A stretch of 64,000 nt of DNA from a virus (IMGVR_UViG_3300029705_006930); one strand, 5' to 3'; numbered from the stretch's first letter, positions 110 to 59,266 are shown. Translations and numbers: made by a program. Notes: generated from the sequence alone by a model not told the origin.

Positions 110-1411
110 CTATATCTCATTTTCAATCTCCTCATCTTCATCGTTATATCGTATCGGACTACCTACGGGAAGCATCTCTAAAAATGCTGCTCCAGGCAAC
201 CAATATTTACTTCCATCATTTGTTCTTTTTGCAACTGAAAAATGTATGTGTGCTATGCGTCCTAAATAATCATCTCTGTGTTCCCAAAATTCTTTGCGTT
301 CTTCATCGCTATATCCAAGAGGCAGCACGACGTTGCTACCTTTATAATCAACTATAAAACTCTGCAGTATATCTTCATTTTCTTTTTTTGTGTAATCAAC
401 TATCATCAAATCTGCTTCATGCATTTGTCTTAGGTATAAGAAACTTTCACTGTTCTGTCGGTATTTATATAAGTCATAATCAAGATTAACTAAAATTCCT
501 GCGTATCCTTTTTCTTTGGCTACTCTGAATGCTTTTAAAATATTTCCTCTGTAACGTCCATTAAATAAAATCGGGGCAAGTTGTATATGTTCGGTAGGTG
601 TAAAATTCGTCTCTAAAAATGTTCGTCGGTCTTTATATATGTTTTTACATGTCTTACGGTTAAATTCTTTCAAAGATAATATGTCATAGATATAAAATAT
701 AATGTCACTTTTATCGCGCTCTGGCAGTCGGACTATCCATCGCTCTTTCATTCGGCGGTCATAAGGGGAGAGGTCTTTTGCATCCTCACCTTTATAAACA
801 AGTTCGCCATCAAATACCACTTCATCAAACGGCAAGTCATTAAATTCCTGCAAGAGTTCATCGAAGCCCTCAAGGACAATGCCGAAGCGTGTATACATTC
901 TTGCTTCGCCACATTCTTTGATAACAGCGCAGCGGGTGCCATTGTACCAACCGGAAACTGTGAACTGTCGCTGACGCACATAGTCTTCGTTACCATAGTA
1001 CAGCCCCGGCATCATCAATGGGATTTCATAAACAGTTCCCGCGCCATATACTGTATTGACCTGTTTGGCTGAAACATTTATTTCAAGGTCTCTCAGCACC
1101 GCATCAATCAAAAAGTCGTGGAGCTCAGCGGGGTAGAGGGTAAGAGAACCATGTATCTTTGCCACAGCTTTTTTATTACCCGCCCCCATATATGTCAGAT
1201 ATTCAAGCAGGTCATCACCTTCGCCTGTCACAAACGGCACAACGTCTTCGGCTGTAATTTCGGACGGCGCCCATTTATCAAAGATAAGGAAACGGCTTAA
1301 CCCAAGACGCGTTTTCCCAAACTGATACAATAAAAAGTCTGTCCACTTGGTATTTGTTGCATTACGGCGCAATATGCGTATTTTTTCATCATAAGATGTT
1401 GTGGCCGCCAA
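110..1411 (-). CDS. ATP-dependent ligase-like nucleotidyltransferase, probably catalytically altered paralog
   Basis: 433-aa ORF. Ligase motifs III (FDGELVY), IIIa (FYIYDIL), IV-like (AGILVN) and V-like (MIVDYTKK) present. Motif I reads SGWYNGTR where the intact ligase at 55427 reads SQKLNGFH, so the adenylated Lys is replaced by Trp. Confidence 0.5.
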   Translation of the reverse strand: MAATTSYDEKIRILRRNATNTKWTDFLLYQFGKTRLGLSRFLIFDKWAPSEITAEDVVPFVTGEGDDLLEYLTYMGAGNKKAVAKIHGSLTLYPAELHDFLIDAVLRDLEINVSAKQVNTVYGAGTVYEIPLMMPGLYYGNEDYVRQRQFTVSGWYNGTRCAVIKECGEARMYTRFGIVLEGFDELLQEFNDLPFDEVVFDGELVYKGEDAKDLSPYDRRMKERWIVRLPERDKSDIIFYIYDILSLKEFNRKTCKNIYKDRRTFLETNFTPTEHIQLAPILFNGRYRGNILKAFRVAKEKGYAGILVNLDYDLYKYRQNSESFLYLRQMHEADLMIVDYTKKENEDILQSFIVDYKGSNVVLPLGYSDEERKEFWEHRDDYLGRIAHIHFSVAKRTNDGSKYWLPGAAFLEMLPVGSPIRYNDEDEEIENEI

Positions 1412-2620: not shown

Positions 2621-3442
2621 CTACCCATTTAATGCGCTGTCAATACTGTCCGCCATCGCATTAATTTCGCCCTGTGTTATTGTAAGGTATGTTTTTGTTA
2701 CGCGCTGGTCACTGTGCTTGTACTTTGCCTGCAAGATGTCCATAACACTGTCGTTGTTCATTGTTTTGCGCGCTGTGTATCCGTATGTTTTGCGCAGTGT
2801 ATGTGTTGCCACGTTCTGTGTGAGGCCCGCCGCCTTTGCACCTTTCTTTAAAATGTCCCACATTTGGTGCAGGCTCATTTGCCCGCCATTGTCACTTTTC
2901 TGGGACTTGATAAGGTAGTCGCTCATTGTATAGTTGCCGTTGAGATGTTCAATGTACATTTCAATGGCTTTTTTTGCGCCCGCTGTTATTTTGTTGCGAT
3001 TGTACTTGCCGGTCTTTTGTTCGTACACATCATAGTAATCTTTTACTGTACCATCCTCATTGAGAACGTCACTGATGCGCGCTCTGAGCAGGTCACTGCC
3101 TCTGTCCCCAATGGTGCAGCCAAACACTACCATCATATAATTGCGGTACTTGTGTCGGCCCCCATGTTCAAGGAAGTAGTTTGCGAGACGCTGAAATTCG
3201 TCCGCGCTGTAAAGAGGCTCTGCACTCTGTGCCTTTTTCACGCCATTGCTTTTGTAAGGCGACGCTGTTCTTGGTGCACGCTGTTTTGGCGCTGGCTTTG
3301 CTGCGGCCATTGCCTGAGCCACTGCATTTGCTATGATGCTCTGGAGCTCGTCCTGTGTCATTTGGAGCTTTGGTGCTGCCGCCTGTGCAGGAAAGTTGAT
3401 TGTATTATTCTGTACGTTTTGTTCTTTTGGCTGAGCGTTCAT
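2621..3442 (-). CDS. tyrosine-type site-specific recombinase (integrase-like)
   Basis: GDRGSDLLRARISDV Arg box; KTGKYNRNK beta-hairpin Lys; HTLRKTYGY (H-x-x-R); KHSD...TKTYL catalytic Tyr region. N-terminal ~60 aa is A/P/Q-rich. Confidence 0.6.
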   Translation of the reverse strand: MNAQPKEQNVQNNTINFPAQAAAPKLQMTQDELQSIIANAVAQAMAAAKPAPKQRAPRTASPYKSNGVKKAQSAEPLYSADEFQRLANYFLEHGGRHKYRNYMMVVFGCTIGDRGSDLLRARISDVLNEDGTVKDYYDVYEQKTGKYNRNKITAGAKKAIEMYIEHLNGNYTMSDYLIKSQKSDNGGQMSLHQMWDILKKGAKAAGLTQNVATHTLRKTYGYTARKTMNNDSVMDILQAKYKHSDQRVTKTYLTITQGEINAMADSIDSALNG

Positions 3443-3599
3443 AGGTGCCTCCTTGTTTGGATTTTTGTTTCCTCTTTTATTGTCTATATTATACCATGAG
3501 AGGGGCTCTTTGATAACGGGGTTTTTGAAAAAACCAAAGAACTTTTTTAAATTTTTTGTGGCGCTTTATATATGTTAATGTATATAAGGAAAGGTTGAT

Positions 3600-4240
3600 G
3601 CGGTTGTTGCGGGGCAGTGTGATTTGGCGCAAAATTAGGCGATTTTTAGGGTGTTTGCAATTGTGTAAGGTCTGGTGTTGGAAATTTGGAAAGGTGTCTT
3701 AATGCCTGAATTTGAGGCTCTGGTGGGGTTATTCTATCACAGTGCTGACGCACTGTGGCGTCGCTGTGCTCCTTTATCTTATCAACGATGAAATGTTTGT
3801 TATTATGTTGCGCGAGAGAGGGTGTGGGGCGCGAAATTTGGGGGCCGGAGAGGTGGGAGGCGCGGTTTTGGGGCGAAATTGGGGCCCGGGTGGCCGGGGC
3901 TAAAATGGGCGTTTCCGGGGGTGTTTTGAGGGGTGTTTGGATAAGTTGCACAAAAATAGAAAAGCCACAGCCGGCTCTGTATGGGGCTAGCTGTGGTTCT
4001 TGTTGTTTATGGGCGTGATTTTGTTGTTTTTATAGTGTTTTGTGGCAAAAATGGTGAAAAAATGTGTAAAAAGGCGCGAAAATGCGTCAAAATGTGTGAT
4101 TTTTGATGATTTTTGGGTGGATTTGGTGTGGAATCAGGGCGAAATGGTGTGGAATGTTGTGTTTGGAGGGTGTTGTGGGGGTGAAAAGTGGACAAATATT
4201 GCTTTTTATGAGCCGAGAGTGAGATATAGCGACGCGTAGC
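3600..4240. repeat. G+T-skewed repeat-rich non-coding region with GCGAAAT(T)-GGGG direct repeats and many G4-G5 runs
   Basis: Top strand nearly C-free over long stretches. Repeats GCGCGAAATTTGGGGGCCGG (~3830), GGCGAAATTGGGGCCCGG (~3871), GGGCGAAATGGTGTGG (~4137), GCGCGAAAATGCG (~4075). ORFs inside are low-complexity. Confidence 0.4.
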
Positions 4241-6053: not shown

Positions 6054-6920
6054 ATGAAACTTAACGAAAAGAAAAACGAAATTTTGTCCGCTATTTCCGC
6101 ACTTAACAAGTTGCTTGTAAACAACGAAAGCAAAAAAGCCGATATCGACAAGGCTCTTGAAAACATCCAGAGCGAAATCAAAGCCTACAATGCCGAAAGA
6201 ACAAGGCTCACTTTTGTTGGGTTGGCTCAGACTGATGAACCTGTTAAAAACGCAATCATTCAGTTGAATTTTGACATCATCAAACTGAAAACAAACAAAG
6301 ACAAGGACACAGATAAAGTGTCATATGAACTTGTAAATGCGAAAAAACAAATCGAATTGCTTGAATTTTCAAAGTATCTCGGTAAAGCAAGTTTTGCAGA
6401 CGAAAACTGGAAATACAAAGTGGAAAAATTCAATCAGCTTATCACATTCAAAGCGGTAAAAGATTTGAATGGCGATATGAACACAATCGCAAAAAGTTTC
6501 TACATCAGCAAACTTGCTGAAAGTGTTGATTTGGGCAAAACACCAACATCAAACACACAGGTTCTCAAACAGTTGCAGACTGTTGTGGACGCAATCATTC
6601 ACGAAAACAAAAGCGAGAATGATGACACAAACAAATTCAAAGTACTGTCTCACGATGTTGCATACATCGTAAAATTGATGTGTAAACGTGCCGACAGCGG
6701 AAAAATCGTAATGCCAAAAGTTTCCTCAATGCACACATTGGTGATGGATGTACTTCACCGTATTGTATGCGACCTCGATTACAAAATCGAATATTCCAAG
6801 AAAAAGGAAGAAGAAACTGCACAGGCTGAAGCCGAAAATGAAATCGAAGCAGCTCAGGAAGAACCAAAAGCTGTAGATGAAAATGCTGAAGAAAAAACAG
6901 CAAAACCAAAAGCGAAATAA
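6054..6920 (+). CDS. hypothetical protein with Lys/Glu/Ala-rich C-terminal tail
   Basis: AAGGAG RBS 8 nt upstream. 288 aa with coiled-coil-like body and KKKEEETAQAEAENEIEAAQEEPKAVDENAEEKTAKPKAK tail. Confidence 0.5.
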   Translation: MKLNEKKNEILSAISALNKLLVNNESKKADIDKALENIQSEIKAYNAERTRLTFVGLAQTDEPVKNAIIQLNFDIIKLKTNKDKDTDKVSYELVNAKKQIELLEFSKYLGKASFADENWKYKVEKFNQLITFKAVKDLNGDMNTIAKSFYISKLAESVDLGKTPTSNTQVLKQLQTVVDAIIHENKSENDDTNKFKVLSHDVAYIVKLMCKRADSGKIVMPKVSSMHTLVMDVLHRIVCDLDYKIEYSKKKEEETAQAEAENEIEAAQEEPKAVDENAEEKTAKPKAK

Positions 6921-6964
6921 TCGAAAACAAAAATCAAAAATGAATTCAAATCAAAGCTGAATGT

Positions 6965-7018
6965 GTCACAGCGGGCAAAAGCTCGCTGTGTATCATTGAG
7001 CTTTTATTTTTTAAGGCA
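6965..7018 (+). terminator. possible terminator hairpins after 6054 gene
   Basis: CACAGCGGGCAAAAGCTCGCTGTG hairpin, then AAGCTC...GAGCTT stem followed by TTATTTTTT. Confidence 0.3.
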
Positions 7019-11500: not shown

Positions 11501-11866
11501 ATGAATGATTTTATTCAGATGGCAGAAAATCTTATGAGAGAAAATGCTGAACTCAGAGCAGAAAATGCGCGCTATAGAGAGCGCTTGAACGAGGCGCACG
11601 AAGTGACTGCGCCAATTGAACCGCAGAAATGTCTGCGTGATATCATCGCACCACTTGTGGAAAAATACGATGACAAAACAATTCACAATGTAAGCACATT
11701 CCGTCGTGTCTATGAAGAAATGGACATTGACTGGTCGGCTGAAGTTGTGAACTGTATTAAGGCACACAACCTGACACGTATTCCACATAAGGCATACATA
11801 GTAGAAGTTTCACCAGTTTTGACCGCCGAGTTTGAACGCGTGGTGCATTTGCTCTTGGCACAGTAA
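11501..11866 (+). CDS. hypothetical protein (coiled-coil N-terminus)
   Basis: GAAGGAGAAC RBS before the second ATG; 121 aa. Confidence 0.45.
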   Translation: MNDFIQMAENLMRENAELRAENARYRERLNEAHEVTAPIEPQKCLRDIIAPLVEKYDDKTIHNVSTFRRVYEEMDIDWSAEVVNCIKAHNLTRIPHKAYIVEVSPVLTAEFERVVHLLLAQ

Positions 11867-11952
11867 AGGAGAATACATATGAAAAAGATTTTTTAATTTT
11901 TTAAAAAAAGCTATTGACAAATTGATATGTAAAGTGTATTATGTAGTTGAAA

Positions 11953-12080
11953 TAACATACAGCTCATCTTTTTGAGACTGCTTTATTTTTTACAATAATA
12001 ACATACAAATCATCTTTTGTAGCTTTTAATCCTTGATTAAGGAAATATTTTTTTTAAGCAAATAACACACAAATCATCTG
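11953..12080 (+). promoter_or_regulatory. three direct copies of the ~20-nt motif ATAACA(T/C)ACA(A/G)(A/C)TCATCT(TTT); same motif recurs at 39955-40031
   Basis: Copies at 11953-11974, 11998-12018, 12062-12080 in a 230-bp AT-rich gap upstream of the 12099 small ORF and the Ubl/E1/JAB cassette. Confidence 0.4.
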
Positions 12081-12098
12081 TCAAAAGGAGAAATTGCA

Positions 12099-12224
12099 AT
12101 GTTACGTATTGTTAATGATAGGGGACACCTCCTCGCATATTGCGGAAACAAATTTCTTGTTTCGGCAGACAACGAGCGCGAAATGCAAAAAGAACTTGCA
12201 GAGCTCGGTTACACAATGACATAA
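12099..12224 (+). CDS. small hypothetical protein (41 aa)
   Basis: AAAAGGAGAAATTGCA RBS; MLRIVNDRGHLLAYCGNKFLVSADNEREMQKELAELGYTMT. Not in ORF track because below 60 aa. Confidence 0.35.
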   Translation: MLRIVNDRGHLLAYCGNKFLVSADNEREMQKELAELGYTMT

Positions 12225-12280
12225 AGGCAAGCCGGCCTTTATATATACAAACACTATTTTTTATAAAAGGAGATTTTAAA

Positions 12281-12727
12281 ATGGCAAAACTTAATCTTAC
12301 AGCAAATGTGCTGTCCCTTGAATCCGCACTTAAACTCGAAGATATCAAAAACGCAATGCGTTGGTGTCCAGATGCTCTCACAGTTATGGACGAAAAAGGC
12401 GAAGAAGAACTCTTCTCTGTTGCTGCAGGTACTTCAAAAGGTTATATCTCACCATACGGCATCACATTTGCTGCTGCAACAGTTCGTGGTGGTAAAGCTT
12501 GCTACACACGCGAAGTTGCACCAGGCACAGAAATGAAAGATATTGCTGAAGTTGTGCTCGCTGAATATGACAAACCAAAAGCATATCTTGAAGTTGTTGA
12601 AGCTCAGGTTGCTGAAGCTCTCGCAAAAGTTGCTGAACGTAGAACAGCTATTATGGCTGAACTTGCTGGCGAATGCGAATGTCCAGACTGCACACCAGAC
12701 TGTCCAACAGCACAGGGCGAAGAATAA
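12281..12727 (+). CDS. hypothetical protein, first gene of the Ubl/E1/JAB cassette (PRTRC protein E position)
   Basis: AAAAGGAGATTTTAAA RBS at internal ATG of ORF 12140..12727. Codon usage markedly more biased and GC-richer than neighbours. C-terminal CECPDCTPDC Cys cluster. Confidence 0.5.
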   Translation: MAKLNLTANVLSLESALKLEDIKNAMRWCPDALTVMDEKGEEELFSVAAGTSKGYISPYGITFAAATVRGGKACYTREVAPGTEMKDIAEVVLAEYDKPKAYLEVVEAQVAEALAKVAERRTAIMAELAGECECPDCTPDCPTAQGEE

Positions 12728-12850
12728 TCTTCGCCCAACCTAAACAAACTTATCCGCAATTTAACCCAATATTTTCCATTAACATTAACAAACTTTTAAA
12801 CCGAAATCGTTAACAAACAAACTTAAACACATAAAAGGAGATTAAATATT

Positions 12851-13078
12851 ATGCTTAGAATTTATGTTGGTACAAACACAAACCGTACAGCTTACACACT
12901 TTCCCCAGAAACAACCCTCAGAGCAGCTTTTGAAACTGCAGGCGTGAACTATGAAATGGGTACCGCAACTCTTGATGGTTCCACACTTCAGCCGGGCGAC
13001 CTTGACAAGTCTTTTGCAGACTTCGGCATCACAGGTACAGCTTACCTCCTGAGCATTGTTAAAGCAAACAACGCTTAA
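12851..13078 (+). CDS. small beta-grasp (ThiS/MoaD/ubiquitin-like) protein candidate
   Basis: 75 aa; MLRIYVGTN...TLDGSTLQPGDLDKSFADFGI pattern typical of ThiS/MoaD-type beta-grasp proteins. Ends ...SIVKANNA with no terminal GG. Strong RBS; high-expression codon bias. Confidence 0.45.
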   Translation: MLRIYVGTNTNRTAYTLSPETTLRAAFETAGVNYEMGTATLDGSTLQPGDLDKSFADFGITGTAYLLSIVKANNA

Positions 13079-13094
13079 TTGATTTTACCTATAG

Positions 13095-13116
13095 GGGCGG
13101 GAGCAATCCTGCCCCA
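13095..13116 (+). promoter_or_regulatory. GC-rich hairpin between Ubl-like gene and downstream genes (possible attenuator)
   Basis: GGGGCGGGAG-CAATC-CTGCCCC stem-loop 17 nt after stop, followed by a weak A/T tract. Confidence 0.3.
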
Positions 13117-13139
13117 ATCTTTAAAGAGAGGAGCTCAGT

Positions 13140-14540
13140 ATGGCACACACATTTAAAAAATGGATGATAAAAGCCATTCCATATGACAACTTGTTTGACA
13201 TATCGGTGGACTTTGAGAATCCATTCCCGACCGATAATCGTCGCGATGCTACACTCGCGGCTGCATTTCACTGTTTGATTAAAGACAGAATTCCAGAGGG
13301 GGTTAATCGCATTGTAGTGCGTGATATCCACTCATATGACTGCAACGTGAGAGACATTTTTGACTATTATGAGGTTGAAAATGGTTTCAAAAGTTGTATT
13401 TTTTACTACGCAGATTGGGACAATGTGAATCTGCAGAGCAAAATTACATTGCCAAATGAATGGGAAGCTCAGGAAATTGCAAGCAAATTTACTGGATGTT
13501 ATGTTACAAATCACGTATCAAAACAATTGATGGTTATCTTTATTCCGAGCAACTATAACCTTGAAACTTGGCATAGACTTGGTGCATTGTTACCAAAATA
13601 TCCAGTGCTCGAGGATATGTGGGCAGCAAAACCACTTACCGAAGATGAACTCAAGATGTTGAAATCACTGTCAACAGACGGTGTAGATTTTGACACATAT
13701 ATAAAAGCGTGGATTGCGACACTCGACCTGCGCACATCCGCAATCAAAAAAATGTTCAACAAATTCATTATTGATAACATCGAGGAACAGATACGCAATG
13801 CCGAAGATAGACGTAGAAGCCTTGAAAACAATATCACAGACTATGCTGCGAGACTGGCAAGGCTGTATAGCGACCTTGACGGTGTTATTGAAATGATAAA
13901 CCGTCTTATGATAGGTGATGACACTGTTGAAGAAAAAGAAAAGAGACTTATCGAATTCTTGTTAACAAACAAAAATGTTGAGCCAATCAGACGTCGCAAT
14001 GACCGCGTTGAATTCAATGTTCACGCAGCAATTGACTGTTGGGATAACGATATGTTCTCATCTTATATCAATAATCACAACAGTTTATTGTATCGCCATA
14101 CAAGCAGATATTCATATGACCAGTTGAAACGTTTTTATGAGCAGGCATTGTTTGCCGGTCGCTTTAAAATTCAGGGCATTGCTAAATTTGAAATTGCAGC
14201 AACAGGTAATGTGAGACCAATTTCAAAAAATGGGCATTGGCCATCAGCTGAAATCGAAAACTGTATTCCAAATACACATGTGGATAAATTCACTTGTATT
14301 GGTAATCACAGACGTATGCTGGATGATGCTGCAAAAATTCGTGACTATGAACAGGCAATTTTGATTGCTATTCAGATTACACAGTCAGTTAACTGGTCGG
14401 ATGGTGCAGTTATGAATCACTTTATTCCTGAAGTGTTGCACTGTGAACGTCCAATTCTTACAGACAGAACAGGCAATACATACACTGTTGCACAGGTAAT
14501 AAGCATACTTGATGCCGAAATAAAGGAGGTTGAAAAATAA
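13140..14540 (+). CDS. hypothetical 466-aa protein of Ubl/E1/JAB cassette (PRTRC protein B position; possible E2-like or adaptor)
   Basis: AAAGAGAGGAGCTCAGT RBS. Stop overlaps start of JAB gene (ATAATG). No motif recognised by eye. Confidence 0.5.
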   Translation: MAHTFKKWMIKAIPYDNLFDISVDFENPFPTDNRRDATLAAAFHCLIKDRIPEGVNRIVVRDIHSYDCNVRDIFDYYEVENGFKSCIFYYADWDNVNLQSKITLPNEWEAQEIASKFTGCYVTNHVSKQLMVIFIPSNYNLETWHRLGALLPKYPVLEDMWAAKPLTEDELKMLKSLSTDGVDFDTYIKAWIATLDLRTSAIKKMFNKFIIDNIEEQIRNAEDRRRSLENNITDYAARLARLYSDLDGVIEMINRLMIGDDTVEEKEKRLIEFLLTNKNVEPIRRRNDRVEFNVHAAIDCWDNDMFSSYINNHNSLLYRHTSRYSYDQLKRFYEQALFAGRFKIQGIAKFEIAATGNVRPISKNGHWPSAEIENCIPNTHVDKFTCIGNHRRMLDDAAKIRDYEQAILIAIQITQSVNWSDGAVMNHFIPEVLHCERPILTDRTGNTYTVAQVISILDAEIKEVEK

Positions 14541-15475
14541 TGAAACCAATAAGATTGACCGATGATGTAAAAGCGGCTATTCTTGATAAATTTGCAAAAC
14601 AGCTGAGCACGGTTGTACGTGCTTCAACTATTACATTCACACATACGCCAACAGTGGTAAGCACACCGTTAGGCAAAGATGAAAAAGTGCTGATTACTTA
14701 TACAGCAGAAGCATTCCGCAAGCAGCAGATGCTTATTCAGAGTTTTGACAGTGAAGTGGCTTGGCACGGTGTTGTTGAACGTGAAGATGCAAAGCATTTT
14801 ATTATTACAGATATCGTAGTATATCCCCAGACTGTTACCGGCTCAACTGTTGAGATGGACGAAGACAAATATGCTCTTTGGACAATTCAGTTCGGTCGTG
14901 AACACGGCGAAGAAACATTCCAGAAACTGCGTATGCAGGGACATAGCCACGTGAATATGGAATGTTTTGCAAGTGGTACAGACTCTAAACACCAGGATGA
15001 CATCTTGGCAACAACTGACCCAAATGGGTTCTATATTTTCATTATTGCCAATAAAAAAGGCAAATTCTGGAGCACTATTTTCGACCTCGAAGCAAATGTT
15101 CAGTATGAAAATGCTGACATCGAAATCGAGTATGAGGAAGATGAGTACGATGAATTTGTAAGTGCAGCAGAAAGTGTGGTTGTAAAAAAGACTTATACAC
15201 CACCTTACAACTATGGCAATGGCTATCACAACAACGGAGCAGGGTATTCATACGGGGCAAGCGCTTATTCTCAGAAGCCACCTCAGACTCCGCCTATGCC
15301 AGTGCTTCCGACAAATACACAGCCAAAAACAAGCACAAACGAAACAAACACAAAGGCAAACACAAACACAAAAAAGGACGATAAATCCATTGAAGAAGAT
15401 ATCACCAATCTTATTCAGATGTCATTGAACGATATGGAATGGGATGAAGTTGGTGGATGGACAAGCAAAATGTAA
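14540..15475 (+). CDS. JAB/MPN (JAMM) metallopeptidase-domain protein with Tyr/Gly/Asn-rich low-complexity C-terminal region
   Basis: HSHVNMECFASGTD matches the JAMM motif H-x-H-x7-S-x2-D, with upstream Glu residues. C-terminal 110 aa low complexity, ending ...NDMEWDEVGGWTSKM. Confidence 0.6.
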   Translation: MKPIRLTDDVKAAILDKFAKQLSTVVRASTITFTHTPTVVSTPLGKDEKVLITYTAEAFRKQQMLIQSFDSEVAWHGVVEREDAKHFIITDIVVYPQTVTGSTVEMDEDKYALWTIQFGREHGEETFQKLRMQGHSHVNMECFASGTDSKHQDDILATTDPNGFYIFIIANKKGKFWSTIFDLEANVQYENADIEIEYEEDEYDEFVSAAESVVVKKTYTPPYNYGNGYHNNGAGYSYGASAYSQKPPQTPPMPVLPTNTQPKTSTNETNTKANTNTKKDDKSIEEDITNLIQMSLNDMEWDEVGGWTSKM

Positions 15476-15484
15476 GGAGAAATT

Positions 15485-16174
15485 ATGGACTTAAGTAAAT
15501 CACTTGACTGGTTTAATCCAGACAGCGTTTCGGAACGCATACATATTATCGGATGCGGTAGTGTAGGTAGTACAGTTGTGGAACTGTTGGCAAGATTCGG
15601 TCTTACAAAGTTCACTCTGTATGATTTTGACCTTGTTGAACCTCACAATATCGCAAACCAGATGTTCAGAAAAACGGACATTGGTAAAACAAAAGTTGAA
15701 GCATTGCAGCAGATTGTATGTGAAATCAATCCAGAGGCGGGCAAAGATATTAAACTTGAACCAGAAGGTTGGCACGGACAGCAGTTGTCTGGCTATGTAG
15801 TTCTTGCTGTTGATAGCATTGAATTGCGTAAAAAGATTTGTGAAGGTTTGCAGATGAATATCTTTGTTAAAGCTGTGTTTGATTTCCGTACAAGTTTGCT
15901 CAACGCACAGCATTATGCAGCCAATTGGCAGGACAAAAAACATCGTGATGACCTCATTGCAACAATGCAGTTCACCGATGAAGAAGCTGCGGCTGAAAAC
16001 CCAGTATCAGCGTGTGGTGTAACACTTGGTGTCGCACCAACAGTAAGACTGATATGCACACTAGGCGTAAGCAATATGATGAACTTTTTCAGAGAAAAGA
16101 AATTGAAAAAAGTTGTATTGGCAGACGCATTTAATTTTGATGCTGACCCTATGGTATTACCTATGGGTCAATAA
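15485..16174 (+). CDS. ThiF/MoeB/HesA-family E1-like adenylyltransferase
   Basis: IIGCGSVGS Rossmann GxGxxG; YDFDLVEPHNIANQMF (D-x-D...N-x-x-R-Q-like) signature of ThiF/E1; Cys in ENPVSACG. Confidence 0.7.
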   Translation: MDLSKSLDWFNPDSVSERIHIIGCGSVGSTVVELLARFGLTKFTLYDFDLVEPHNIANQMFRKTDIGKTKVEALQQIVCEINPEAGKDIKLEPEGWHGQQLSGYVVLAVDSIELRKKICEGLQMNIFVKAVFDFRTSLLNAQHYAANWQDKKHRDDLIATMQFTDEEAAAENPVSACGVTLGVAPTVRLICTLGVSNMMNFFREKKLKKVVLADAFNFDADPMVLPMGQ

Positions 16175-16198
16175 TACACAATAAGAGAAATGTTTATG

Positions 16199-16500
16199 GT
16201 GAATATTGCACATTGTATGGCAAGCTTTTGCTGTTAGCAGAAGTAAAGAAATGGTAGAGAACATAGAGGCAGGCGCTTAAGGAGCACGCTGAGGTGATTC
16301 CTAAGTACTGCAGCTTCTTGCATCCGACGAGCTCTGAAAAGGTAGGTTTAACAGGAGGATTGGATTACTTACAAGTGAAATTAACCAGTTCAAACCGTAA
16401 AGCTCATCTGAAATTAACGATAAATCCCAGATTTGCATCTCTTTTATCCGGGAATGAAGGGCTTAAAACTATAGCTAGACCATAAACAAGATAGGGAGGA
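16199..16500 (+). ncRNA. candidate structured ncRNA unit A, upstream of RT
   Basis: Non-coding 330-bp gap. Boxes TGAATATTGCACATTGT, TTGCTGTTAGCAG (16228), GAAATGGTAGAGA (16248), AACAGGAGGATTGG (16350), CCAGTTCA (16385) are shared with units at 17873 and 18398. Confidence 0.35.
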
Positions 16501-16504
16501 CATT

Positions 16505-17860
16505 ATGGTTTATATCACATATCCAGCACCTAACAAATTTCATCAGATTACATTTGAAGAAATGATGTCGGGCAATGTTAATACAGATAAATTAAGAATT
16601 TTAGGCGGACATAATACGCTTACTTTGCATCTTAACGATGTACCTGCAAACTTAAAAGGTCAGACTTCTGTACGCAAAATGATTGCAGATTTGCAGTATT
16701 TTGTAGGTGTATATTATGACACACTGATGCCACAGATAAAAGAATTTGAGAAGCTTTCAGATGCTCAGCGTCGCAGCGTCAAACAGCGTGACAAGATTGA
16801 AAATTATTTTGAACAGATGGGCGCAACTGCAAATGATGAAGACTTGCAGAAAATCACTGAACAGGTAGATGCGCTGCAGTGTGAAGTTGCAGAACAGCAG
16901 TATAAATATGCTTACTATACATTCGATTTGCGCAAAAGTTCAGCGCCGGAACACATTCCATTGTGGCGACTGCCAAAAGAATACAGACGTACAATCAATG
17001 CTCCGAACATACATCTTAAAAATGCGCTATATGAACTTAAAGAACTGTTTGAAAATATGATGATACGTACATATCATACTGCATCATTTGCGTATGTTAA
17101 ACATCGTGGAACTTTGGATGCTGTAAAACGTCATCAGAGCTGGGAAAGCAAATGGTTTGCAAAGTTTGACTTTTCAGATTTCTTTGGTAGCACAACAATT
17201 GACTTTGTTATGCAACAGTTCTCTCAAATATATCCGTTTAATATGATTTGTGCATATAAAGATGGTAAAGAAGCTCTTTATAAAGCATTGCAGTTGTGTT
17301 TTTTGGACGGTGGACTTCCACAGGGCACACCTATTAGTCCTCTCATCACAAACATAATGATGATACCATTTGACCACGCAATGTCAAAAGCTCTTAAAGA
17401 ATTTAAATATCCAAACAAACACGGTAGTGAACGTTTTGTGTATACAAGATATGCTGATGACCTGCTTATCAGTTGCCGTGTGGATTTTAAAGTGGAAATT
17501 ATTCAGGCATTTATTCTGGAAACTTTAAAATCAATGAATGCGCCTTTTAGCCTTAACGTTAAGAAAACTCGTTACGGTTCTAGTGCAGGTAGCAACTGGA
17601 ATCTTGGGGTGATGCTTAACAAAGACAATAAAATTACAATCGGTGCAGAAAACAAGCGCAGACTTAAAGCTTCTTTGAATTCATTTATCCTTGATATGAA
17701 GAATGAAAAACCTTGGGATATTTCTATGGTGTATAGACTCAGAGGTCAGATTTCTTATTATCGTAATGTGGAAAGGGAAGCAACAAATAACATCATTGCA
17801 GCGATGAACACAAAATATGGTGTTGATGCAGAAGCAATGATGAAATCTATTATAAGTTAA
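16505..17860 (+). CDS. reverse transcriptase (retron/DGR/UG-Abi clade)
   Basis: GATAGGGAGG RBS; motif 1-2 region YYTFDLRKSS...RRTINAPNIHLKNALYEL; motif A FDFSDFFGS (DFFxS type); motif B' LPQGTPISPLITNI; motif C YTRYADDLLIS. ~130-aa N-terminal extension. Confidence 0.8.
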   Translation: MVYITYPAPNKFHQITFEEMMSGNVNTDKLRILGGHNTLTLHLNDVPANLKGQTSVRKMIADLQYFVGVYYDTLMPQIKEFEKLSDAQRRSVKQRDKIENYFEQMGATANDEDLQKITEQVDALQCEVAEQQYKYAYYTFDLRKSSAPEHIPLWRLPKEYRRTINAPNIHLKNALYELKELFENMMIRTYHTASFAYVKHRGTLDAVKRHQSWESKWFAKFDFSDFFGSTTIDFVMQQFSQIYPFNMICAYKDGKEALYKALQLCFLDGGLPQGTPISPLITNIMMIPFDHAMSKALKEFKYPNKHGSERFVYTRYADDLLISCRVDFKVEIIQAFILETLKSMNAPFSLNVKKTRYGSSAGSNWNLGVMLNKDNKITIGAENKRRLKASLNSFILDMKNEKPWDISMVYRLRGQISYYRNVEREATNNIIAAMNTKYGVDAEAMMKSIIS

Positions 17861-17872
17861 TTTAATTTTTAT

Positions 17873-18150
17873 ATATTGAATATCACAGTCATTGTGAAGT
17901 GTTGATGTTATCGGCACTAACGAAATGGTAAGAAAGTATGGCAGGAAGGCCCGCAGGTTCATGATGAAGACGCGTGCGAGCTTACAGCTCCAGCATAAAA
18001 ATTAGAAATGCTGGTACAATGAAAAGGAAGAAAATCATGAACGAAAGCCATACTTTCCAACATCCACAAAACCACGAATTTAAAACGCTTCATTACTCCG
18101 CGACCCTCCGCCAGGAGGGCCCGGGCGCGGTAAAGCGTCAAATAAATAAT
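17873..18150 (+). ncRNA. candidate structured ncRNA unit B, downstream of RT
   Basis: TATTGAATATCACAGTCATTGT, TTGATGTTATCGGCA, GAAATGGTAAGAAAG (17925) homologous to unit A. Ends with GC-rich compound hairpin CCGCG-ACCCTCCGCCAGGAGGG-CCCGGGCGCGG (18097-18129) and box ATTGAGAATA (18148). Confidence 0.3.
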
Positions 18151-18167
18151 TGAGAATATATAAAAAA

Positions 18168-18350
18168 ACTTTATTGAATATCTTTAAATTTGTACATAAA
18201 TTTAAGAACTGTTGCTGTTAGCAGCAGTGTCAAACGAACAGGATAAATAAAGAAATACAAATTTCTTTATTTAAATAACTTCTTAGCGTCGTAAGGCGCG
18301 ATGCTCCGACATCGCTCATGACGACGCCAAAGTTATTGAGAATAAAGTTA
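18168..18350 (+). repeat. degenerate partial copy of the ncRNA unit
   Basis: TATTGAATATC (18171), TTGCTGTTAGCAGCAG (18210), GC-rich hairpin GCGTCGT...ACGACGC (18285-18326), box ATTGAGAATA (18334). Confidence 0.25.
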
Positions 18351-18397
18351 AAAAAATAATAAGAAAAATAAACAGTGTATATTTGCATAGCAAAGCT

Positions 18398-18760
18398 ATT
18401 GATGTAATCAGTAGTACAGAAATGGTAGGAAAGATTACACGGGACGGTGTCGCCGGTGAGGAGCCACCTCCTTTGCAAACCCCTGCAATATTTCTAAAAC
18501 CTAATTAAAACTATGTCCGAATGGTCAAACATAACAGGAGGACTGAGAAACATCACCTGAAGGATACCAACTGAACCCCCAGTTCAGATGACACGACAGC
18601 TGGAGAAATCTAGACCCATGGGATGGTGATTCAACATTAAATTACAATTCAGACTGTTTATTGCTTTATAGTTTTTGCCAAGCTACGAAAACTCCAAATA
18701 ATGAGTAGTGTGTGACATAAAAGCCAAGCCTCGTCAACTCCCTTTCGGGGCTTGGTAAAG
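18398..18760 (+). ncRNA. candidate structured ncRNA unit C
   Basis: TTGATGTAATCAG...GAAATGGTAGGAAAG (18420), AACAGGAGGACTG (18532), CTGAAC-CCCCA-GTTCAG hairpin (18570-18590), terminal hairpin GCCAAGCC...GGCTTGG (18722-18757). Confidence 0.3.
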
Positions 18761-18797
18761 ACTATAAAACAAACAATTTAAGTAAAGGAGAATATAT

Positions 18798-19187
18798 ATG
18801 ACAAAAGCAGAAAAAGCAGCTGGCAGGCTGTTAAGAAGAATGAATAAAGAATACTTGGGTGAGGTAGAAGCATTGATAAAAATGTGTCGACAGCCTAAAG
18901 TTGACCTTTCTGAAATCAGTATTCAGTCCTACAAAGTAACAGTTTTGGCAGAGCTCAAAGACGAATTTTTTGCAATCAAAATGACAGAAGATGAAATGGA
19001 GTATATTTATGACCTCTATGCTTGTCTTGATGCTCCTTTGAATTATTTGTGGGAATGTTGGCGTGATGATGAAGGCTATAACATTTCTGACTCCATTGGT
19101 GATTTAGTTTCTGATATTATAAGCCAGGATATCGAATGTATTTCAGAAGATAACTTAATCGAGGTGAATATGGATGAGACTGAATGA
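18798..19187 (+). CDS. hypothetical protein
   Basis: AAGTAAAGGAGAATATATATG RBS; 129 aa; acidic. Confidence 0.45.
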   Translation: MTKAEKAAGRLLRRMNKEYLGEVEALIKMCRQPKVDLSEISIQSYKVTVLAELKDEFFAIKMTEDEMEYIYDLYACLDAPLNYLWECWRDDEGYNISDSIGDLVSDIISQDIECISEDNLIEVNMDETE

Positions 19188-19416
19188 TAAACTCACAATT
19201 TATTTAGACAATGGCAATAAATTGGTTGCTGAATTATATAATCATGCAGGTATAGAAAAAGAAATCTCCGTACATATTGAAAACGCTTCAGGTGTATGTA
19301 TTCAAGATATTTGCACCGTAAAAGCAGTAGAAGAAATTGAATGTTTAGTATGGGGAGATGAAAATTCTGAAGATTATACAGACGAGTTCTATATACCGCT
19401 TTATAAGGAGGTCTAG
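19174..19416 (+). CDS. hypothetical protein
   Basis: GAGGTGA RBS; overlaps upstream stop; 80 aa. Confidence 0.4.
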   Translation: MRLNDKLTIYLDNGNKLVAELYNHAGIEKEISVHIENASGVCIQDICTVKAVEEIECLVWGDENSEDYTDEFYIPLYKEV

Positions 19417-55426: not shown

Positions 55427-56749
55427 ATGAGACAAATATTAAATATGAGAGAAACATTAACGCGAGTAAGTTTTTTATTTAAGACTATTGCGAGTACACC
55501 AAGGACAACTGAAAAGAAACGATTGTTGCGTTATATCAACAGCTCAGAACCAGAGAATGTATGTGAAATGTTTCTGTATACTTTACGATTTTTATTGGAT
55601 AACAATGTAACAACAGGTATCGATAAAAAGAAACTCAAAGCTCAAATTAATATGCCTGATATTAATTTTCCAATGAAATGGTCACATATGTTGGAATATA
55701 TCAAAGAAAACAATACAGGAAGGCATGAAGATATTCGCAGAGCACAGCTCTTTATCGAAGATAATCCCGAGAATGCGGAATTTATTGCTGATATTATAAC
55801 AAAATCATATAGGTTAGGACTGACAGCCAAAACAGTAAATGAAGTTTATGAAGATTTTATTCCTGTTTGGTCAGTACAGCAGGCATATCCTTTGGAAAAA
55901 TATCCGCTTAAGGACGGAGAATGGTTTTCTTTATCACAAAAGCTTAATGGGTTCCATGCCTCATATTACAAGGGTAAATTAATAAGCCGACAAGGAAAAG
56001 AAATCAAAGGTTGTAAGCACGTTATTAACGCAATAAACAACTTTAAACTTCAAGATTTCTTTATTGATGGCGAGCTTATCCGGCGTAATGATATTGAACC
56101 TCATCTCTCAGACGAAGAAAATTTTCGACAGACTGTTTCAATTGCGAATTCTGATTCTGACGACAAAACAGACCTGTGTTTTATTTATTATGATATCATT
56201 CCAGCTGATGATTTTGACAAAGGCAAATGTGAAATAACATATCGCCAACGTCTTAATGACATGCATAAATTAAACAGTATAATTCTGCAGACTCCATTTT
56301 ATAAAACGTTTCATATGGTGAAATGGTTTTATCACGGCAATGACCAAAAGAAAATTCAGTTTTGGCTTGATTATGCAAATGAAAATGATATGGAGGGTCT
56401 TATGTTAAATAAGGATACTGTATATCAATGCAAACGTAATTCAGGCATTTTAAAGGTAAAAAGTTGGAAACATTGTGACCTTAGAGTAACGGGCGTTGAA
56501 GAAGGCGATGGCAAATACAAAGGAACCCTTGGAAAACTGATTGTGGACTATAAAGGAAATACTTTGGGATTAAGTGGAATGAGCGATGAGGAACGTTATA
56601 TATTTTGGAATAATCCACAGGACATAGTTGGGAAGATTGTGCTCGTTAAATATAAACAGGAAACAAAAGACAAAACAGGTAAACGTAGTTTGCAGTTCGC
56701 AACCTACCAAGGTGTTAGAACTGATAAAGATGAAGTCAGCTACAATTAA
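55427..56749 (+). CDS. ATP-dependent DNA ligase
   Basis: Motif I KLNGFHA; III FFIDGELI; IIIa FIYYDII; IV EGLMLNK; V ILKVK. Confidence 0.7.
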   Translation: MRQILNMRETLTRVSFLFKTIASTPRTTEKKRLLRYINSSEPENVCEMFLYTLRFLLDNNVTTGIDKKKLKAQINMPDINFPMKWSHMLEYIKENNTGRHEDIRRAQLFIEDNPENAEFIADIITKSYRLGLTAKTVNEVYEDFIPVWSVQQAYPLEKYPLKDGEWFSLSQKLNGFHASYYKGKLISRQGKEIKGCKHVINAINNFKLQDFFIDGELIRRNDIEPHLSDEENFRQTVSIANSDSDDKTDLCFIYYDIIPADDFDKGKCEITYRQRLNDMHKLNSIILQTPFYKTFHMVKWFYHGNDQKKIQFWLDYANENDMEGLMLNKDTVYQCKRNSGILKVKSWKHCDLRVTGVEEGDGKYKGTLGKLIVDYKGNTLGLSGMSDEERYIFWNNPQDIVGKIVLVKYKQETKDKTGKRSLQFATYQGVRTDKDEVSYN

Positions 56750-56765
56750 TAGATGGGGGAATAAA

Positions 56766-58065
56766 ATGAACGTAAAAGATTGGCTTGGAGAAGAAAATCA
56801 GCTCGGCATTGATATTGCTACAAAAAAATATATTAAAAACGAATCCTTTGATGAATTTATCGGAAGAATTTCAAATAATAATCCAGAAATTAAAAGAATT
56901 ATTTTAGAAAAGAAATATCTGCATGGTGGCAGAACACTCAGTAACTACAATACGGGTAATGGTGCATCCACATCCAACTGTTATTCAAGTGGTTACTGCC
57001 CGGATGATACAGCAGGTATTCTGGAGCTAAATAAAAATATAGGTCTTACATATAAAGCACAGGGTGGGCAGGGTTTATCTCTGAGTAAAATCCGTCCAAA
57101 GGGCTGTAAAATCAGCAAAGGTGGATATGAAACTGATGGCATCATTCCATTTATGCAGATGTTTGATACTACAACAGCAAGTATTTCACAGGGCGGTTCA
57201 AGAAAAGGAGCTCTGATGATGTCTCTTGACTGCTGGCATAAAGAGGTTAAAGATTTTATCACAATCAAAACCGATACAAATCTTATTACAAAAGCAAATC
57301 TGTCAGTTGAAATTGACGATGAATTTATGACCTGTGTCAGAAAATATTATGATGAAGGCTTGGTATTTGAAAAACAAGTAAACTTTACTTATGATGGCGG
57401 TGAAACCAGATATATGGTGAAACCTATTGAAGTATATCAGCTGATTTGTAAAACGGCTCATGAATATGCTGAGCCAGGCATTATCTATACTGAGCAGTTT
57501 CGCAACTATAATTTAATGCAGTACGATGATGAATATCAGATTGTAACTGGTAACCCATGTGGAGAACAGCCTTTGCCACAGAATGGGGCGTGCAATCTGG
57601 GCAGTATTAACCTTGCAGAATTTGTAAAACACCCATATTCATCAGAATCAGAGTTTGATTTTGTAGATTTCCGCAATACAGTAGAAATTGCAATCAGAGC
57701 ATTGGATGACGTACTGGATTATGGTGCTGAACTTCATGCTTTGCCAGAACAGAGAGAAATGGCAAAGAATTATCGCAATATAGGTCTTGGCATTATGGGC
57801 CTTGCTTCAATGCTTTTTAAGATGGGCATTAAATATGGCAGTGATGAATCTCTCCATCTTGTAGATACCATTGGCTATACAATGTTTAGAACTGCTTTGG
57901 AGACATCTACTGAGCTCGCAAAAGAAAAAGGAACTTTCCCAAAATATAAAGATGTTGTTTTTGATGCAGAAATTATTAAGGCACATTTTAATGCAGACGA
58001 AATCGCAGAGCTCCGCAAATATGGTCTTCGCAACTGCTCATTGCTTTCAATCGCTCCAAGTGGGT
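56766..58065 (+). CDS. ribonucleotide reductase catalytic subunit, exon 1 (likely class II-like; no NrdB seen)
   Basis: GATGGGGGA RBS; NPCGEQPLPQNGACNLGS active-site Cys/Glu loop. Reading frame ends in the conserved SIAPSG segment, 18 nt before the in-frame stop. Confidence 0.6.
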
Positions 58066-59266
58066 TGACTAACTGGCTCACATAAAACATTTTTAATTGC
58101 TGGAACATCCTTAGAGCTTCATAAACTACAACATAATGATGAAATATACATAAGTGTGAATGTTTGAAAATTATGAAGATTGGATAATCAGCAGCGAAGC
58201 TCTGAATAGGAGAACGTTCAACGACTATCCCTTAATGGGAGTACACTGCAAGTGATTGGCAGTGGAAATAAAATGTACTAATTATTTATAAACTTAGGTA
58301 AAAGTAATAATAGAATTAAAAAATATAACATATGACGACATATATAATTTATATATAACACAACAAAAATCACAGCGACAAGTAGCAAACATACTTCACA
58401 TTGGGCAAACATCGGTTAGAAGGTTGTTACAAAAATATAATATTCCATCTAGGACTTCAGAAGAAAGCAAACAAACTCCAGATTTCATTGCTCGTCAAGC
58501 AGAACTTGCTCATAGATATCAAAATGAGTATAGAAAAATAATTGTCAAACAGTGTAAATGGTGTGGAAAAGATTTCGAAGTAGATGGTGAACATAAAAGA
58601 AAAAAATATTGCTCCCCAGAATGTGTTTCTATGTCTCAAAAATCTAAAACCAAAACACAATTTTGCCAGCGTTGTGGTAAAGAAATAAAAATATCATCTG
58701 GAAGACATTATAAAAGAATCTATTGTGATGAATGTAATGTTGTTGGCAGAAGTGAAAAGCAAATTAATAAGATACAAACTACTTGTGGATATTGTGATGC
58801 AAAAATCGAAGTAATTCCAAGTGTATATAAGGCAAATCGTTTTTGTTATTGCGATATGAATTGCATGGCTAAGCATTACGCAGAAATATATAGCGGGGAA
58901 AATAATCCCTCTTGGAAAGGTGGAAAATCACATCATTACACAGGTGGGTTTTATAATGCTCGGCAAAAGGCAAGAGAAAGAGATAAATATACTTGTCAAA
59001 TATGTGGAATTACGGAAACTGACTTTGGTCAACAAATGAGTGTGCACCATATCAAAAATTATAGATTATTTGAAGATAAGGCTGAAGCAAATAAACTTGA
59101 TAATTTAATATGTCTATGTGAACCTTGTCACCGATTTGTACATTCGAACAATAATAAAGAAGGATTGTTTATAAATAATTAGTAAAGATATAGTCTCAAC
59201 TTATATGAAAATATAAGCAGCCAGAAGATGGCGGCGATGGTGTAGCGAACCATCGCGAAGACATTG
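58066..59266 (+). mobile_element. group I intron with embedded HNH homing endonuclease
   Basis: Canonical R element GTTCAACGACTA (58215-58226) and S element AAGATATAGTC (59185-59195). 5' exon ends in T, intron ends in G. Splicing restores the conserved ...SIAPSGSIGTMLNVTTGCEPAF. Boundaries +/- a few nt. Confidence 0.6.
58424..59182 (+). CDS. HNH homing endonuclease (intron-encoded)
   Basis: C-terminal CQICG...HHIKNY...NLICLCEPCHRFVH HNH motif plus several CxxC pairs. TTG start in track; in-frame upstream sequence encodes an HTH (SQRQVANILHIGQTSVRRL) with no ATG. Confidence 0.6.
   Translation: MLQKYNIPSRTSEESKQTPDFIARQAELAHRYQNEYRKIIVKQCKWCGKDFEVDGEHKRKKYCSPECVSMSQKSKTKTQFCQRCGKEIKISSGRHYKRIYCDECNVVGRSEKQINKIQTTCGYCDAKIEVIPSVYKANRFCYCDMNCMAKHYAEIYSGENNPSWKGGKSHHYTGGFYNARQKARERDKYTCQICGITETDFGQQMSVHHIKNYRLFEDKAEANKLDNLICLCEPCHRFVHSNNNKEGLFINN

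Follow-up and report, generated by a model that had tools for sequence, protein, structure and literature searches.

A phage-borne candidate conflict module linking a retron-type reverse transcriptase and several template-like RNAs to a Bil-like ubiquitin-like conjugation pathway

Why should a virus keep the genes of a putative ubiquitin-like conjugation pathway directly beside a reverse transcriptase (RT) and its RNA? The question is raised by a stretch of 64,000 nucleotides of viral DNA (IMGVR_UViG_3300029705_006930; the window, with positions counted from its first letter), in which a cassette coding for a candidate ubiquitin-like protein (Ubl), a JAB/JAMM metallopeptidase and an E1/ThiF-type adenylating enzyme precedes an RT gene flanked by non-coding RNA (ncRNA) units. 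An earlier reading of this DNA, hereafter the original prediction, had proposed that the two halves form a composite system. Our analysis places the module at 11914-18772, as one co-oriented block, and we see an even chance that this block is a single phage-borne conflict module, namely a retron with a complete Ubl conjugation pathway as its effector arm. The evidence for this answer comes from the joint inheritance of the two halves, from the anatomy of the RNA units and from the resemblance of the protein cassette to a known antiviral operon.

Gene neighbourhoods, the conservation of which the original prediction had named as a check, were compared starting both from the RT and from the E1. 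The RT search scored thousands of matches, of which the best 120 were inspected. Among viral contigs it led to 61 loci at ~40% RT identity, with JAB and E1 genes upstream in all of the 60 that had enough flanking sequence, and the search seeded with E1 led to 29 loci, with the RT downstream in 28 of the 28 that were not truncated. An RT-seeded search of 185,579 species genomes added 63 loci, and here E1 lay within 7 kb in 54 of 57. When these three independent sets are pooled, E1 and RT occur together in 142 of 145 informative loci, which supports the composite system that the original prediction had put forward. The arrangement is equally constant: both genes share a strand in 140/140 cases, E1 lies upstream in 139/140, and the median gap between them is 416 nt; in one subgroup (that of locus L035) the RT start codon follows the E1 stop by 14 nt. 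Pairwise identities of E1 and RT are strongly correlated over 123 distinct loci (r=0.93; Mantel p=0.002). Neighbouring genes outside the module are conserved only in its closest relatives and the module therefore travels as a unit. In the three closest relatives, L062, L065 and L067, the whole layout is kept, including a small open reading frame (ORF) for 41 aa, the promoter and the leader repeats described below, as well as the order of the RNA units around the RT (A, RT, B, short C, D).

The RNA half of the module goes beyond what had been claimed for it. The original prediction had spoken of an RT and its RNA; the RT is retron-type by its closest matches, and there are four msr-msd-like RNAs rather than one. 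These four units are built like a retron msr-msd RNA: a stem formed by a1 and a2, the G of the branch point, hairpins of the msr kind and a stem-loop for the msd (Table 1). Each holds one of four copies of a 43-nt element (at 16222, 17896, 18206 and 18393), which consists of a 9-bp hairpin with a GUU loop followed by GAAAUGGUAG. Run over the 64-kb window, a covariance model of the hairpin derived from 14 copies hits these four sites and no others; they flank the RT, and each is on the + strand. Some 20-33 nt 5' of each hairpin lies a1, of 9-12 nt, with its perfect reverse complement (a2) 183-301 nt downstream, and a G directly follows a1 in all four units. The same holds more widely: of 25 units from nine loci, 16 have perfect a1/a2 repeats of at least 9 nt, which random positions show in 11.8% of cases (p=1e-9), with lengths of 9-14 nt and spans of 183-330 nt, and a G stands immediately 3' of a1 in 21 (p=3e-11). 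The a1 and a2 sequences differ among units and phages while keeping their complementarity, and they covary in L065 and L067; the window pair TGTTTATGGT/ACCATAAACA, for example, becomes TGTTTGTAGT/ACTACAAACA in L067.

The hairpin of the repeated element, P2, is 99.6% paired over 50 units, compared with 34-50% in slid controls, and shows compensatory changes in seven of its nine pairs; none of 500 shuffles reached the observed values. Another hairpin, P1, varies in sequence between units and is always present, as judged by eye in alignment A5. The third unit of the window, ncRNA C, is short and has a long, clear msd-like stem-loop; L062 and L065 likewise have a short third unit, of 211 nt and 192 nt respectively. 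Across related phages, 111 of 113 matches of the hairpin profile lie on the RT strand, and the 41 distinct loci with such matches carry between one and five units each, upstream of the RT in 35, downstream in 32 and on both sides in 26. No tRNA or tmRNA was detected by the corresponding scan, and the bodies of the units (msd) had no matching targets in the rest of the window. In two other loci, L090 (3681-3726) and L092 (3685-3730), a weak match to the hairpin model (E ~0.6) lies on the same strand between the Ubl gene and that of the homologue of the 466-aa protein described below, which could represent one further unit, placed within the protein cassette, or be due to chance.

The RT that these units surround belongs, as far as its sequence allows us to judge, to the retron clade. 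It matches RVT_1 in Pfam (3.7e-18), its top matches among the PADLOC models are all retron RTs (the best being RT_II-A, 2e-41), and its closest solved structures in the Protein Data Bank (PDB) are the RTs of retrons Ec83, Ec78 and Ec86. Its NCBIfam matches are retron_St85_RT (1e-46), group II (3e-20) and Drt2 (1.6e-12); a group II intron was considered and rejected. We also rejected a diversity-generating retroelement, since the repeats near the RT consist solely of the 43-nt non-coding hairpin modules, the unit bodies have no match elsewhere in the window and the best matches of the enzyme are to retrons. Within the family, the catalytic YADD and LPQGTPISP motifs are invariant and the N-terminal extension is conserved as well (MVYITV.QPP.YRQMT.EELLFG). 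The homologues differ from each other by large insertions: one, at aa ~70-135, occurs only in RTs similar to that of the window, and P0075 has a separate insertion of ~75 aa. L065 has an extra gene for a 155-aa protein at 6531-6998, between ncRNA A and the RT.

The protein half begins, among its candidate conjugation genes, with the 75-aa protein, a candidate Ubl by sequence comparison. Its profile aligns collinearly with ubiquitin in hhalign, residues 16-72 on 15-72, at a weak E-value (0.026), and both proteins have the same four-residue tail beyond the last strand. Its other profile matches, to TtuB, SAMP2 and another Ubl, were all below threshold, and hhalign gave no match to MoaD, nor to the RT family. 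Across 26 distinct homologues the C-terminus reads ...VK(A/Q)(D/N)(N/C/S)A, directly followed by the stop codon in most of them and by 1-3 extra residues in some; a C-terminal Gly is not conserved among the 26. In five loci (L076, L078, L082, L083 and L087) the Ubl is fused in frame, directly after its ...DNA (Asp-Asn-Ala) motif, to a domain homologous to the 148-aa protein encoded upstream of it in the window, g148, homologues of which are present in many related loci. These fusions and the short extensions imply that an endopeptidase is needed, for which the JAB protein is the obvious candidate. The fusions (L076:3043-3645, L078:3047-3649, L082:3012-3617, L083:2953-3570, L086/L087:2534-3151) resemble the precursor of a ubiquitin fusion; the window carries them unfused, as separate genes whose order is reversed.

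The JAB protein carries a JAMM motif (E72...H135-S-H137-x7-S145-x2-D148) that is invariant in 20 diverse homologues, and its family profile matches the proteasomal deubiquitinase Rpn11 among PDB sequences over the motif region (E=0.009), making it a candidate enzyme for both Ubl processing and deconjugation. The adjoining E1 consists of a single ThiF domain spanning residues 17-204 of 229 (Pfam) and matches the E1-E2 (Cap2) model of PADLOC (3e-17); its matches in the PDB include UBA5, Uba1, MccB, Cap2 and TcdA. At least 95% of 58 E1 sequences share a cysteine, Cys177, which belongs to the motif PVSACG. Searches of Pfam, PHROGs, NCBIfam and PADLOC gave nothing significant for the JAB protein or for the proteins of 41, 148, 75 and 466 aa.

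The 466-aa protein, encoded between the Ubl and JAB genes, probably carries the E2 function. A word-indexed search retrieved only the protein itself, and one more protein with an alignment as query, whereas an exhaustive HMMER search uncovered a fast-evolving family of 1812 clusters at 50% identity, all of ~480 aa. Four of its residues, H145, H380, C386 and G388, are invariant, three of them in the motif PNPH(I/L)xxxxC(L)G. In an AlphaFold2 model made with a 100-sequence alignment, residues 263-466 form a helix, four strands (with an insertion), a loop with PNxH, Cys386 and three helices, in what is probably, as compared by eye, the element order of a UBC domain. Foldseek returned no PDB match for the model and only one uncharacterised phage homologue in BFVD, and hhalign did not match the family to UBE2D2; because neither structural search nor sequence profiles lend it support, the E2 assignment is probable and not established. 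With this protein, the cassette would amount to a full Bil-like pathway, one component more than the Ubl, E1 and JAB of the original prediction.

How does this module compare with known systems? BilABCD (bacterial ISG15-like) is an antiviral ubiquitination operon with the gene order Ubl-E2-DUB-E1, in which the deubiquitinase (DUB) pre-processes the Ubl (PMC10557695). The 75-aa protein, the 466-aa protein, JAB and E1 would fill the same four roles in the same order, the Ubl C-terminus is apparently exposed by a peptidase, and both E1 and the E2-like protein have a conserved cysteine. By contrast, our E1 is a single ThiF domain, while BilD is multidomain (inactive and active adenylation domains and CYS); our Ubl ends in ...DNA, with Ala in the place of the universally conserved Gly of the Bil Ubl; the E2-like domain takes up the C-terminal half of a much larger protein (466 aa), with His before Cys and not, as in BilB, Cys then His; and the cassette is joined to an RT and ncRNAs, whereas the words "reverse transcriptase" do not occur in the text of the Bil paper (PMC10557695). 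Because E1 architecture and Ubl C-terminus differ, we consider the cassette to be Bil-like rather than a member of Bil.

Two other systems share parts of the cassette. As in type II CBASS (cyclic oligonucleotide-based antiphage signalling system), an E1 closest to Cap2-type models (PADLOC, 3e-17; NCBIfam 6A-MBL cap2_3) is paired with a JAB protein, but here E1 is separate from E2 and the substrate would be a small Ubl and not a nucleotidyltransferase. This candidate was rejected: neither a CD-NTase nor a cyclic-nucleotide effector is found among the seven module proteins with PADLOC and Pfam, and there is no E1-E2 fusion. As in the sulfur-carrier pairs ThiS/ThiF and MoaD/MoeB, a small protein adjoins a ThiF-family enzyme, and the best NCBIfam matches of E1 are ThiF models. 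Sulfur transfer was nevertheless rejected, given that the ThiF/MoeB scores of E1 are 33-75 bits against cut-offs of 152-650 (75 against 159 for one model) and that Gly-Gly is missing from the Ubl; the module also has no sulfur-transfer or cofactor genes, and has instead a JAB and an E2-like protein.

Retrons consist of an RT, an msr-msd ncRNA and an effector, and were sorted into 13 types (Mestre et al. 2020, PMC7736814). The likeness of our module to them includes an ncRNA directly upstream of the RT, the a1/a2 repeats, the G after a1, the msr-like hairpins, the msd-like stem-loop and accessory genes conserved beside the RT. It differs in having as many as five ncRNA genes for a single RT, placed both before and after it, an arrangement of which the literature searched holds no report; in its accessory genes, since a Ubl/E2-like/JAB/E1 pathway is absent from the 2020 classification (PMC7736814); in an RT that has an N-terminal extension of ~130 aa and falls below the NCBIfam retron cut-off; in RNA units that match no Rfam family, either at the gathering threshold over the whole window or at an E-value threshold over 11800-18900; and in being carried by phages of gut Clostridia. 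The original prediction had also taken the pairing of a Ubl conjugation machinery with an RT to be undescribed. In agreement with this, no RT or retron linked to ThiF, JAB or a ubiquitin-like pathway was found in the literature searched, a body of work to which most subscription-journal papers do not belong, and neither the 2020 retron classification nor a 2021 RT review mentions ThiF or ubiquitin; what the searches did bring up were reviews dealing with each of the two subjects on its own.

If the block does work as a retron with a conjugation pathway for its effector arm, the following sequence of events can be envisaged. The operon would be transcribed from 11914, the ncRNAs together with the protein genes or just after them. 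The RT would then prime on the G after each a1 stem and reverse transcribe each msd, giving up to four different multicopy single-stranded DNAs (msDNAs). The JAB protein would trim the Ubl, or cut the Ubl-g148 fusions, after ...DNA, exposing a C-terminal alanine that E1 would adenylate and take over as a thioester on Cys177; the Ubl would pass from there to Cys386 of the E2-like domain and be ligated onto target proteins. By analogy with other retrons, RT-msDNA complexes would probably restrain or direct the conjugation machinery, which would be switched on by something that changes the msDNA, for example a competing phage or else a nuclease or DNA-binding protein of the host.

Several points weigh against this reading. 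The Ubl fold of the 75-aa protein is putative, which is a main weakness, and the fold support for the E2 function, probable as we take it to be from the model, is moderate. The RT scores 159.5 bits with retron_St85_RT, below the curated cut-off of 235 bits, and its family shows DAVKRH and an invariant N366-L367-G368 (NLG) where, as judged by eye, the retron-specific RT motifs NAxxH and VTG would be expected. As for the RNAs, ncRNA A folds no better than its shuffles (z = -1.0 to -1.6), and the hairpin covariance model detected no units in the L035 group. The co-variation of E1 and RT could in part reflect shared phage ancestry, and in three loci (L109, L115 and L126) the RT has no E1/JAB cassette within 7 kb. 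Moreover, all the functional steps of the module are ones that we infer from sequence, and the evidence fits defence and counter-defence alike and cannot tell them apart.

This last point leads to the alternative that survives best. It accepts the same composite and gives it an offensive role: during lytic growth abundant msDNAs would serve as decoys or regulators, and the Ubl would tag and disable host proteins, for instance those of host defence, so that the module would not be shielding a lysogen from other phages. We consider it a real possibility, if a somewhat unlikely one. The module is found amid same-strand early and replication genes, upstream of those for helicase, DNA polymerase, ligase and ribonucleotide reductase (RNR); genes a few kb upstream of it in relatives code for a NADAR protein (L067:1-450) and a protein with a weak match to ArdA (L062:1201-1728), two families known from anti-defence contexts; and it persists in many deeply diverged phages (56-150 kb), which is not usual for defence genes carried as sporadic cargo. 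Its place among early genes and its NADAR and ArdA-like neighbours in relatives also fit counter-defence in general. Yet the integrase gene in the window and the contigs of 245-430 kb in which several bacterial loci lie mean that expression from a prophage is possible, and the module comes with a promoter of its own, followed by repeats that resemble operators; integrase, prophage-sized contigs and autonomous promoter all fit defence. Furthermore, every characterised retron and Bil-type system serves in defence (PMC10557695; retron literature). By analogy with both, we favour for the module a role in defending the lysogen or the phage against competing phages, while a role against host defences during lytic growth appears nearly as likely.

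Rather improbable, in our view, is that we are dealing with two independent systems, a phage retron and Bil-like ubiquitination, which work separately and have no more than an accessory island in common. Defence genes do cluster in islands, both halves have known stand-alone relatives, and the association can be broken, not only in the three loci with the RT alone but also in L105, with E1 downstream of the RT, and in L106, with E1 6 kb upstream. Against such independence stand the 142 of 145 loci with both, the fixed order and strand and the 14-nt spacing in one subgroup, as well as the fact that the RT has no other effector-like gene and that the pair remains together where the flanks differ. 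L115, which lacks a cassette, nonetheless retains hairpin units 3' of its RT, and the metagenome-assembled genome (MAG) that holds L109 also carries a complete module (L117).

More improbable again is that the Ubl machinery acts on the retron itself, with the Ubl attached to the RT or to the msDNA/RNA, or with E1 adenylating a nucleic acid or a peptide to yield a protein-nucleic-acid adduct. The minimal single-domain E1 would lend itself to this, with the tRNA-modifying enzyme TcdA and MccB, the maker of a peptide-nucleotide, among its PDB neighbours; the C-terminus of the Ubl is Asn-Ala and not Gly-Gly, and a shared substrate would fit the tight coupling of RT and E1. But an E2-like protein with an invariant cysteine and a JAB protein point to ordinary protein conjugation. 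Finally, that the units are not RT templates at all, acting as regulatory or processing elements (small RNAs, attenuators or RT-binding sites, for example) beside an RT with another template or a non-templated activity, we regard as very improbable: msDNA production is deduced here, the folding energy of ncRNA A is ordinary and some related RT classes polymerise without a template, but 25 units, in many phages, repeatedly show a1/a2 with a G next to a1, hairpins like those of an msr and a stem-loop like that of an msd, and the RT is of the retron clade and neither Abi nor UG class 1.

Returning to the retron with a conjugation pathway as effector arm, its meaning would reach beyond this phage. 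Retrons and bacterial ubiquitin-like systems are recently recognised branches of immunity that have so far been studied apart, and the module appears to join them; if it does, it would be a new type of retron with a new class of effector. On this evidence, the novelty would lie in a virus-borne retron that combines a class of effector new to retrons with several template RNAs in an array, while its parts are of known kinds. An RT that serves such an array is of practical interest for multiplexed genome editing with retrons, and the presence of what looks like a complete Ubl-E2-DUB-E1 pathway in gut-Clostridia viruses is relevant to how ubiquitin signalling arose and to how viruses make use of it. 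A bolder idea, which we hold to be doubtful, is that the four to five msDNAs per RT act as sensors or guides that set when or onto what the Ubl is conjugated, or, stranger still, that the RT-msDNA particle itself carries the Ubl in covalent linkage. If true, such msDNA-guided tagging or Ubl-msDNA joining would for the first time tie the mechanism of reverse transcription directly to that of ubiquitin-like conjugation and, in the sensor or guide version, a virus-encoded form of ubiquitin-like tagging programmed by nucleic acids. The family is within experimental reach because some of its copies are in isolate genomes; locus L141, for one, belongs to a prophage in Clostridiales Family XIII bacterium PM5-7.

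The physical layout of the block agrees with its being one transcription unit. As the original prediction had stated, cassette and RT-ncRNA half are contiguous and co-oriented: the + strand holds every substantial ORF across 12099-17860, with intergenic gaps of 0-125 nt in the protein cassette. Between the E1 stop (16174) and the RT start (16505) lie 330 non-coding bases. The first RNA unit was expected right after E1, and the predicted end of E1 is correct, but the gap is 17 nt and not ~25. The predicted lack of a terminator between them also agrees with our consensus scan, in which no terminator-like site appears on the + strand over 15030-19400, and which also found no promoter-like site over 15486-16690. 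We infer from these features that cassette and RT-ncRNA half are transcriptionally coupled.

The module starts at a sigma-70-type promoter that agrees with the consensus at 11 of 12 positions, and this extends the block originally proposed; the -35 TTGACA is invariant across L062, L065 and L067. The cluster of motifs reported upstream of the cassette is real and comprises three direct repeats just 3' of the promoter, which are candidate operator or leader elements; the three relatives have two or three repeats in the same place, with a sequence of their own (ATACGGnAAAT...). They also have a gene of 41-42 aa called at the position of the first cassette gene, with 56% identity in L067 (tblastn). 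At the other end, the RNA-like non-coding sequence reported downstream is confirmed: the 937 nt 3' of the RT hold only short (<=82 aa), unconserved ORFs and fold far better than shuffles (z = -6.35), and the next gene begins at 18798. A long hairpin closes this region after ncRNA D, and its inner hairpin is kept in L062 with base changes. It is not a standard terminator because no T-run follows it, and the consensus scan made no terminator call there.

Table 1. Features of the module in the window (z, folding energy relative to shuffled sequences; CM, covariance model)
Feature	Position	Strand	Remarks
Sigma-70-type promoter	11914-11942	+	TTGACA-17-TATTAT; 11/12 consensus positions; module head
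Three direct repeats AATAACATACAAATCATCTTTT, 22 nt	11951, 11997, 12061 (11951-12082)	+	leader, just 3' of promoter
41-aa ORF	12099-12224	+	first cassette gene; function unassigned
148-aa protein	12281-12727 (ATG 12281)	+	no family match; function unassigned
75-aa Ubl candidate	12851-13078	+	hhalign to ubiquitin, conserved C-terminus
466-aa protein	13140-14540	+	N-terminal alpha/beta domain and long helix; C-terminal half probably UBC/E2-like
Probable UBC/E2-like half (aa 263-466)	13926-14540	+	motif P377-N378-x-H380...C386-x-G388
JAB/JAMM metallopeptidase, 311 aa	14540-15475	+	JAMM motif at nt 14942-14983
E1/ThiF-type adenylating enzyme, 229 aa	15485-16174	+	single domain; Pfam ThiF 1.4e-20
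ncRNA A	16191-16488	+	a1 16191-16200, a2 16479-16488; G16201; P2 16224-16244; CM 55 bits
Retron-clade RT, 451 aa	16505-17860	+	YADD at nt 17450-17461; N-terminal extension ~130 aa
ncRNA B	17866-18166	+	a1 17866-17877, a2 18155-18166; P2 17898-17918; CM match; z = -4.7
ncRNA C, short	18167-18349	+	a1 18167-18175, a2 18341-18349; P2 18208-18228; CM match; z = -7.6
ncRNA D	18367-18662	+	a1 18367-18376, a2 18653-18662; P2 18395-18415; CM match; z = -2.5
Long terminal hairpin	18661-18772	+	30-nt arms, 83% complementary; GC-rich inner hairpin; closes non-coding region after ncRNA D

The hosts of the module are gut Clostridia. The loci in bacterial genomes come almost all from Clostridia MAGs, recovered from the guts of humans, ruminants, rabbits, chickens, horses and termites, and the module family is abundant in human and animal gut metagenomes. 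The phage group has no close relative in INPHARED: among its 50,697 records, the sole match covers 132 bp at 75% identity in the E1 gene (15536-15667), in an unannotated human faecal phage (MT835544.1).

Elsewhere in the window, a tyrosine integrase is encoded at 2621-3442 on the - strand, in a spike of GC content (0.48 over 3001-4000, against ~0.35), with a switch of strand to the long + run that holds the module. There are two homologues of ATP-dependent DNA ligase, at 110-1411 (-) and 55427-56749 (+). The gene for the RNR large subunit is split into two parts, 56628-58085 and 59278-60246, which match consecutive portions of the PHROG profile (251-666 and 672-973), and the 252-aa ORF between them (58424-59182) suggests the insertion of an intron, an intein or a homing endonuclease.

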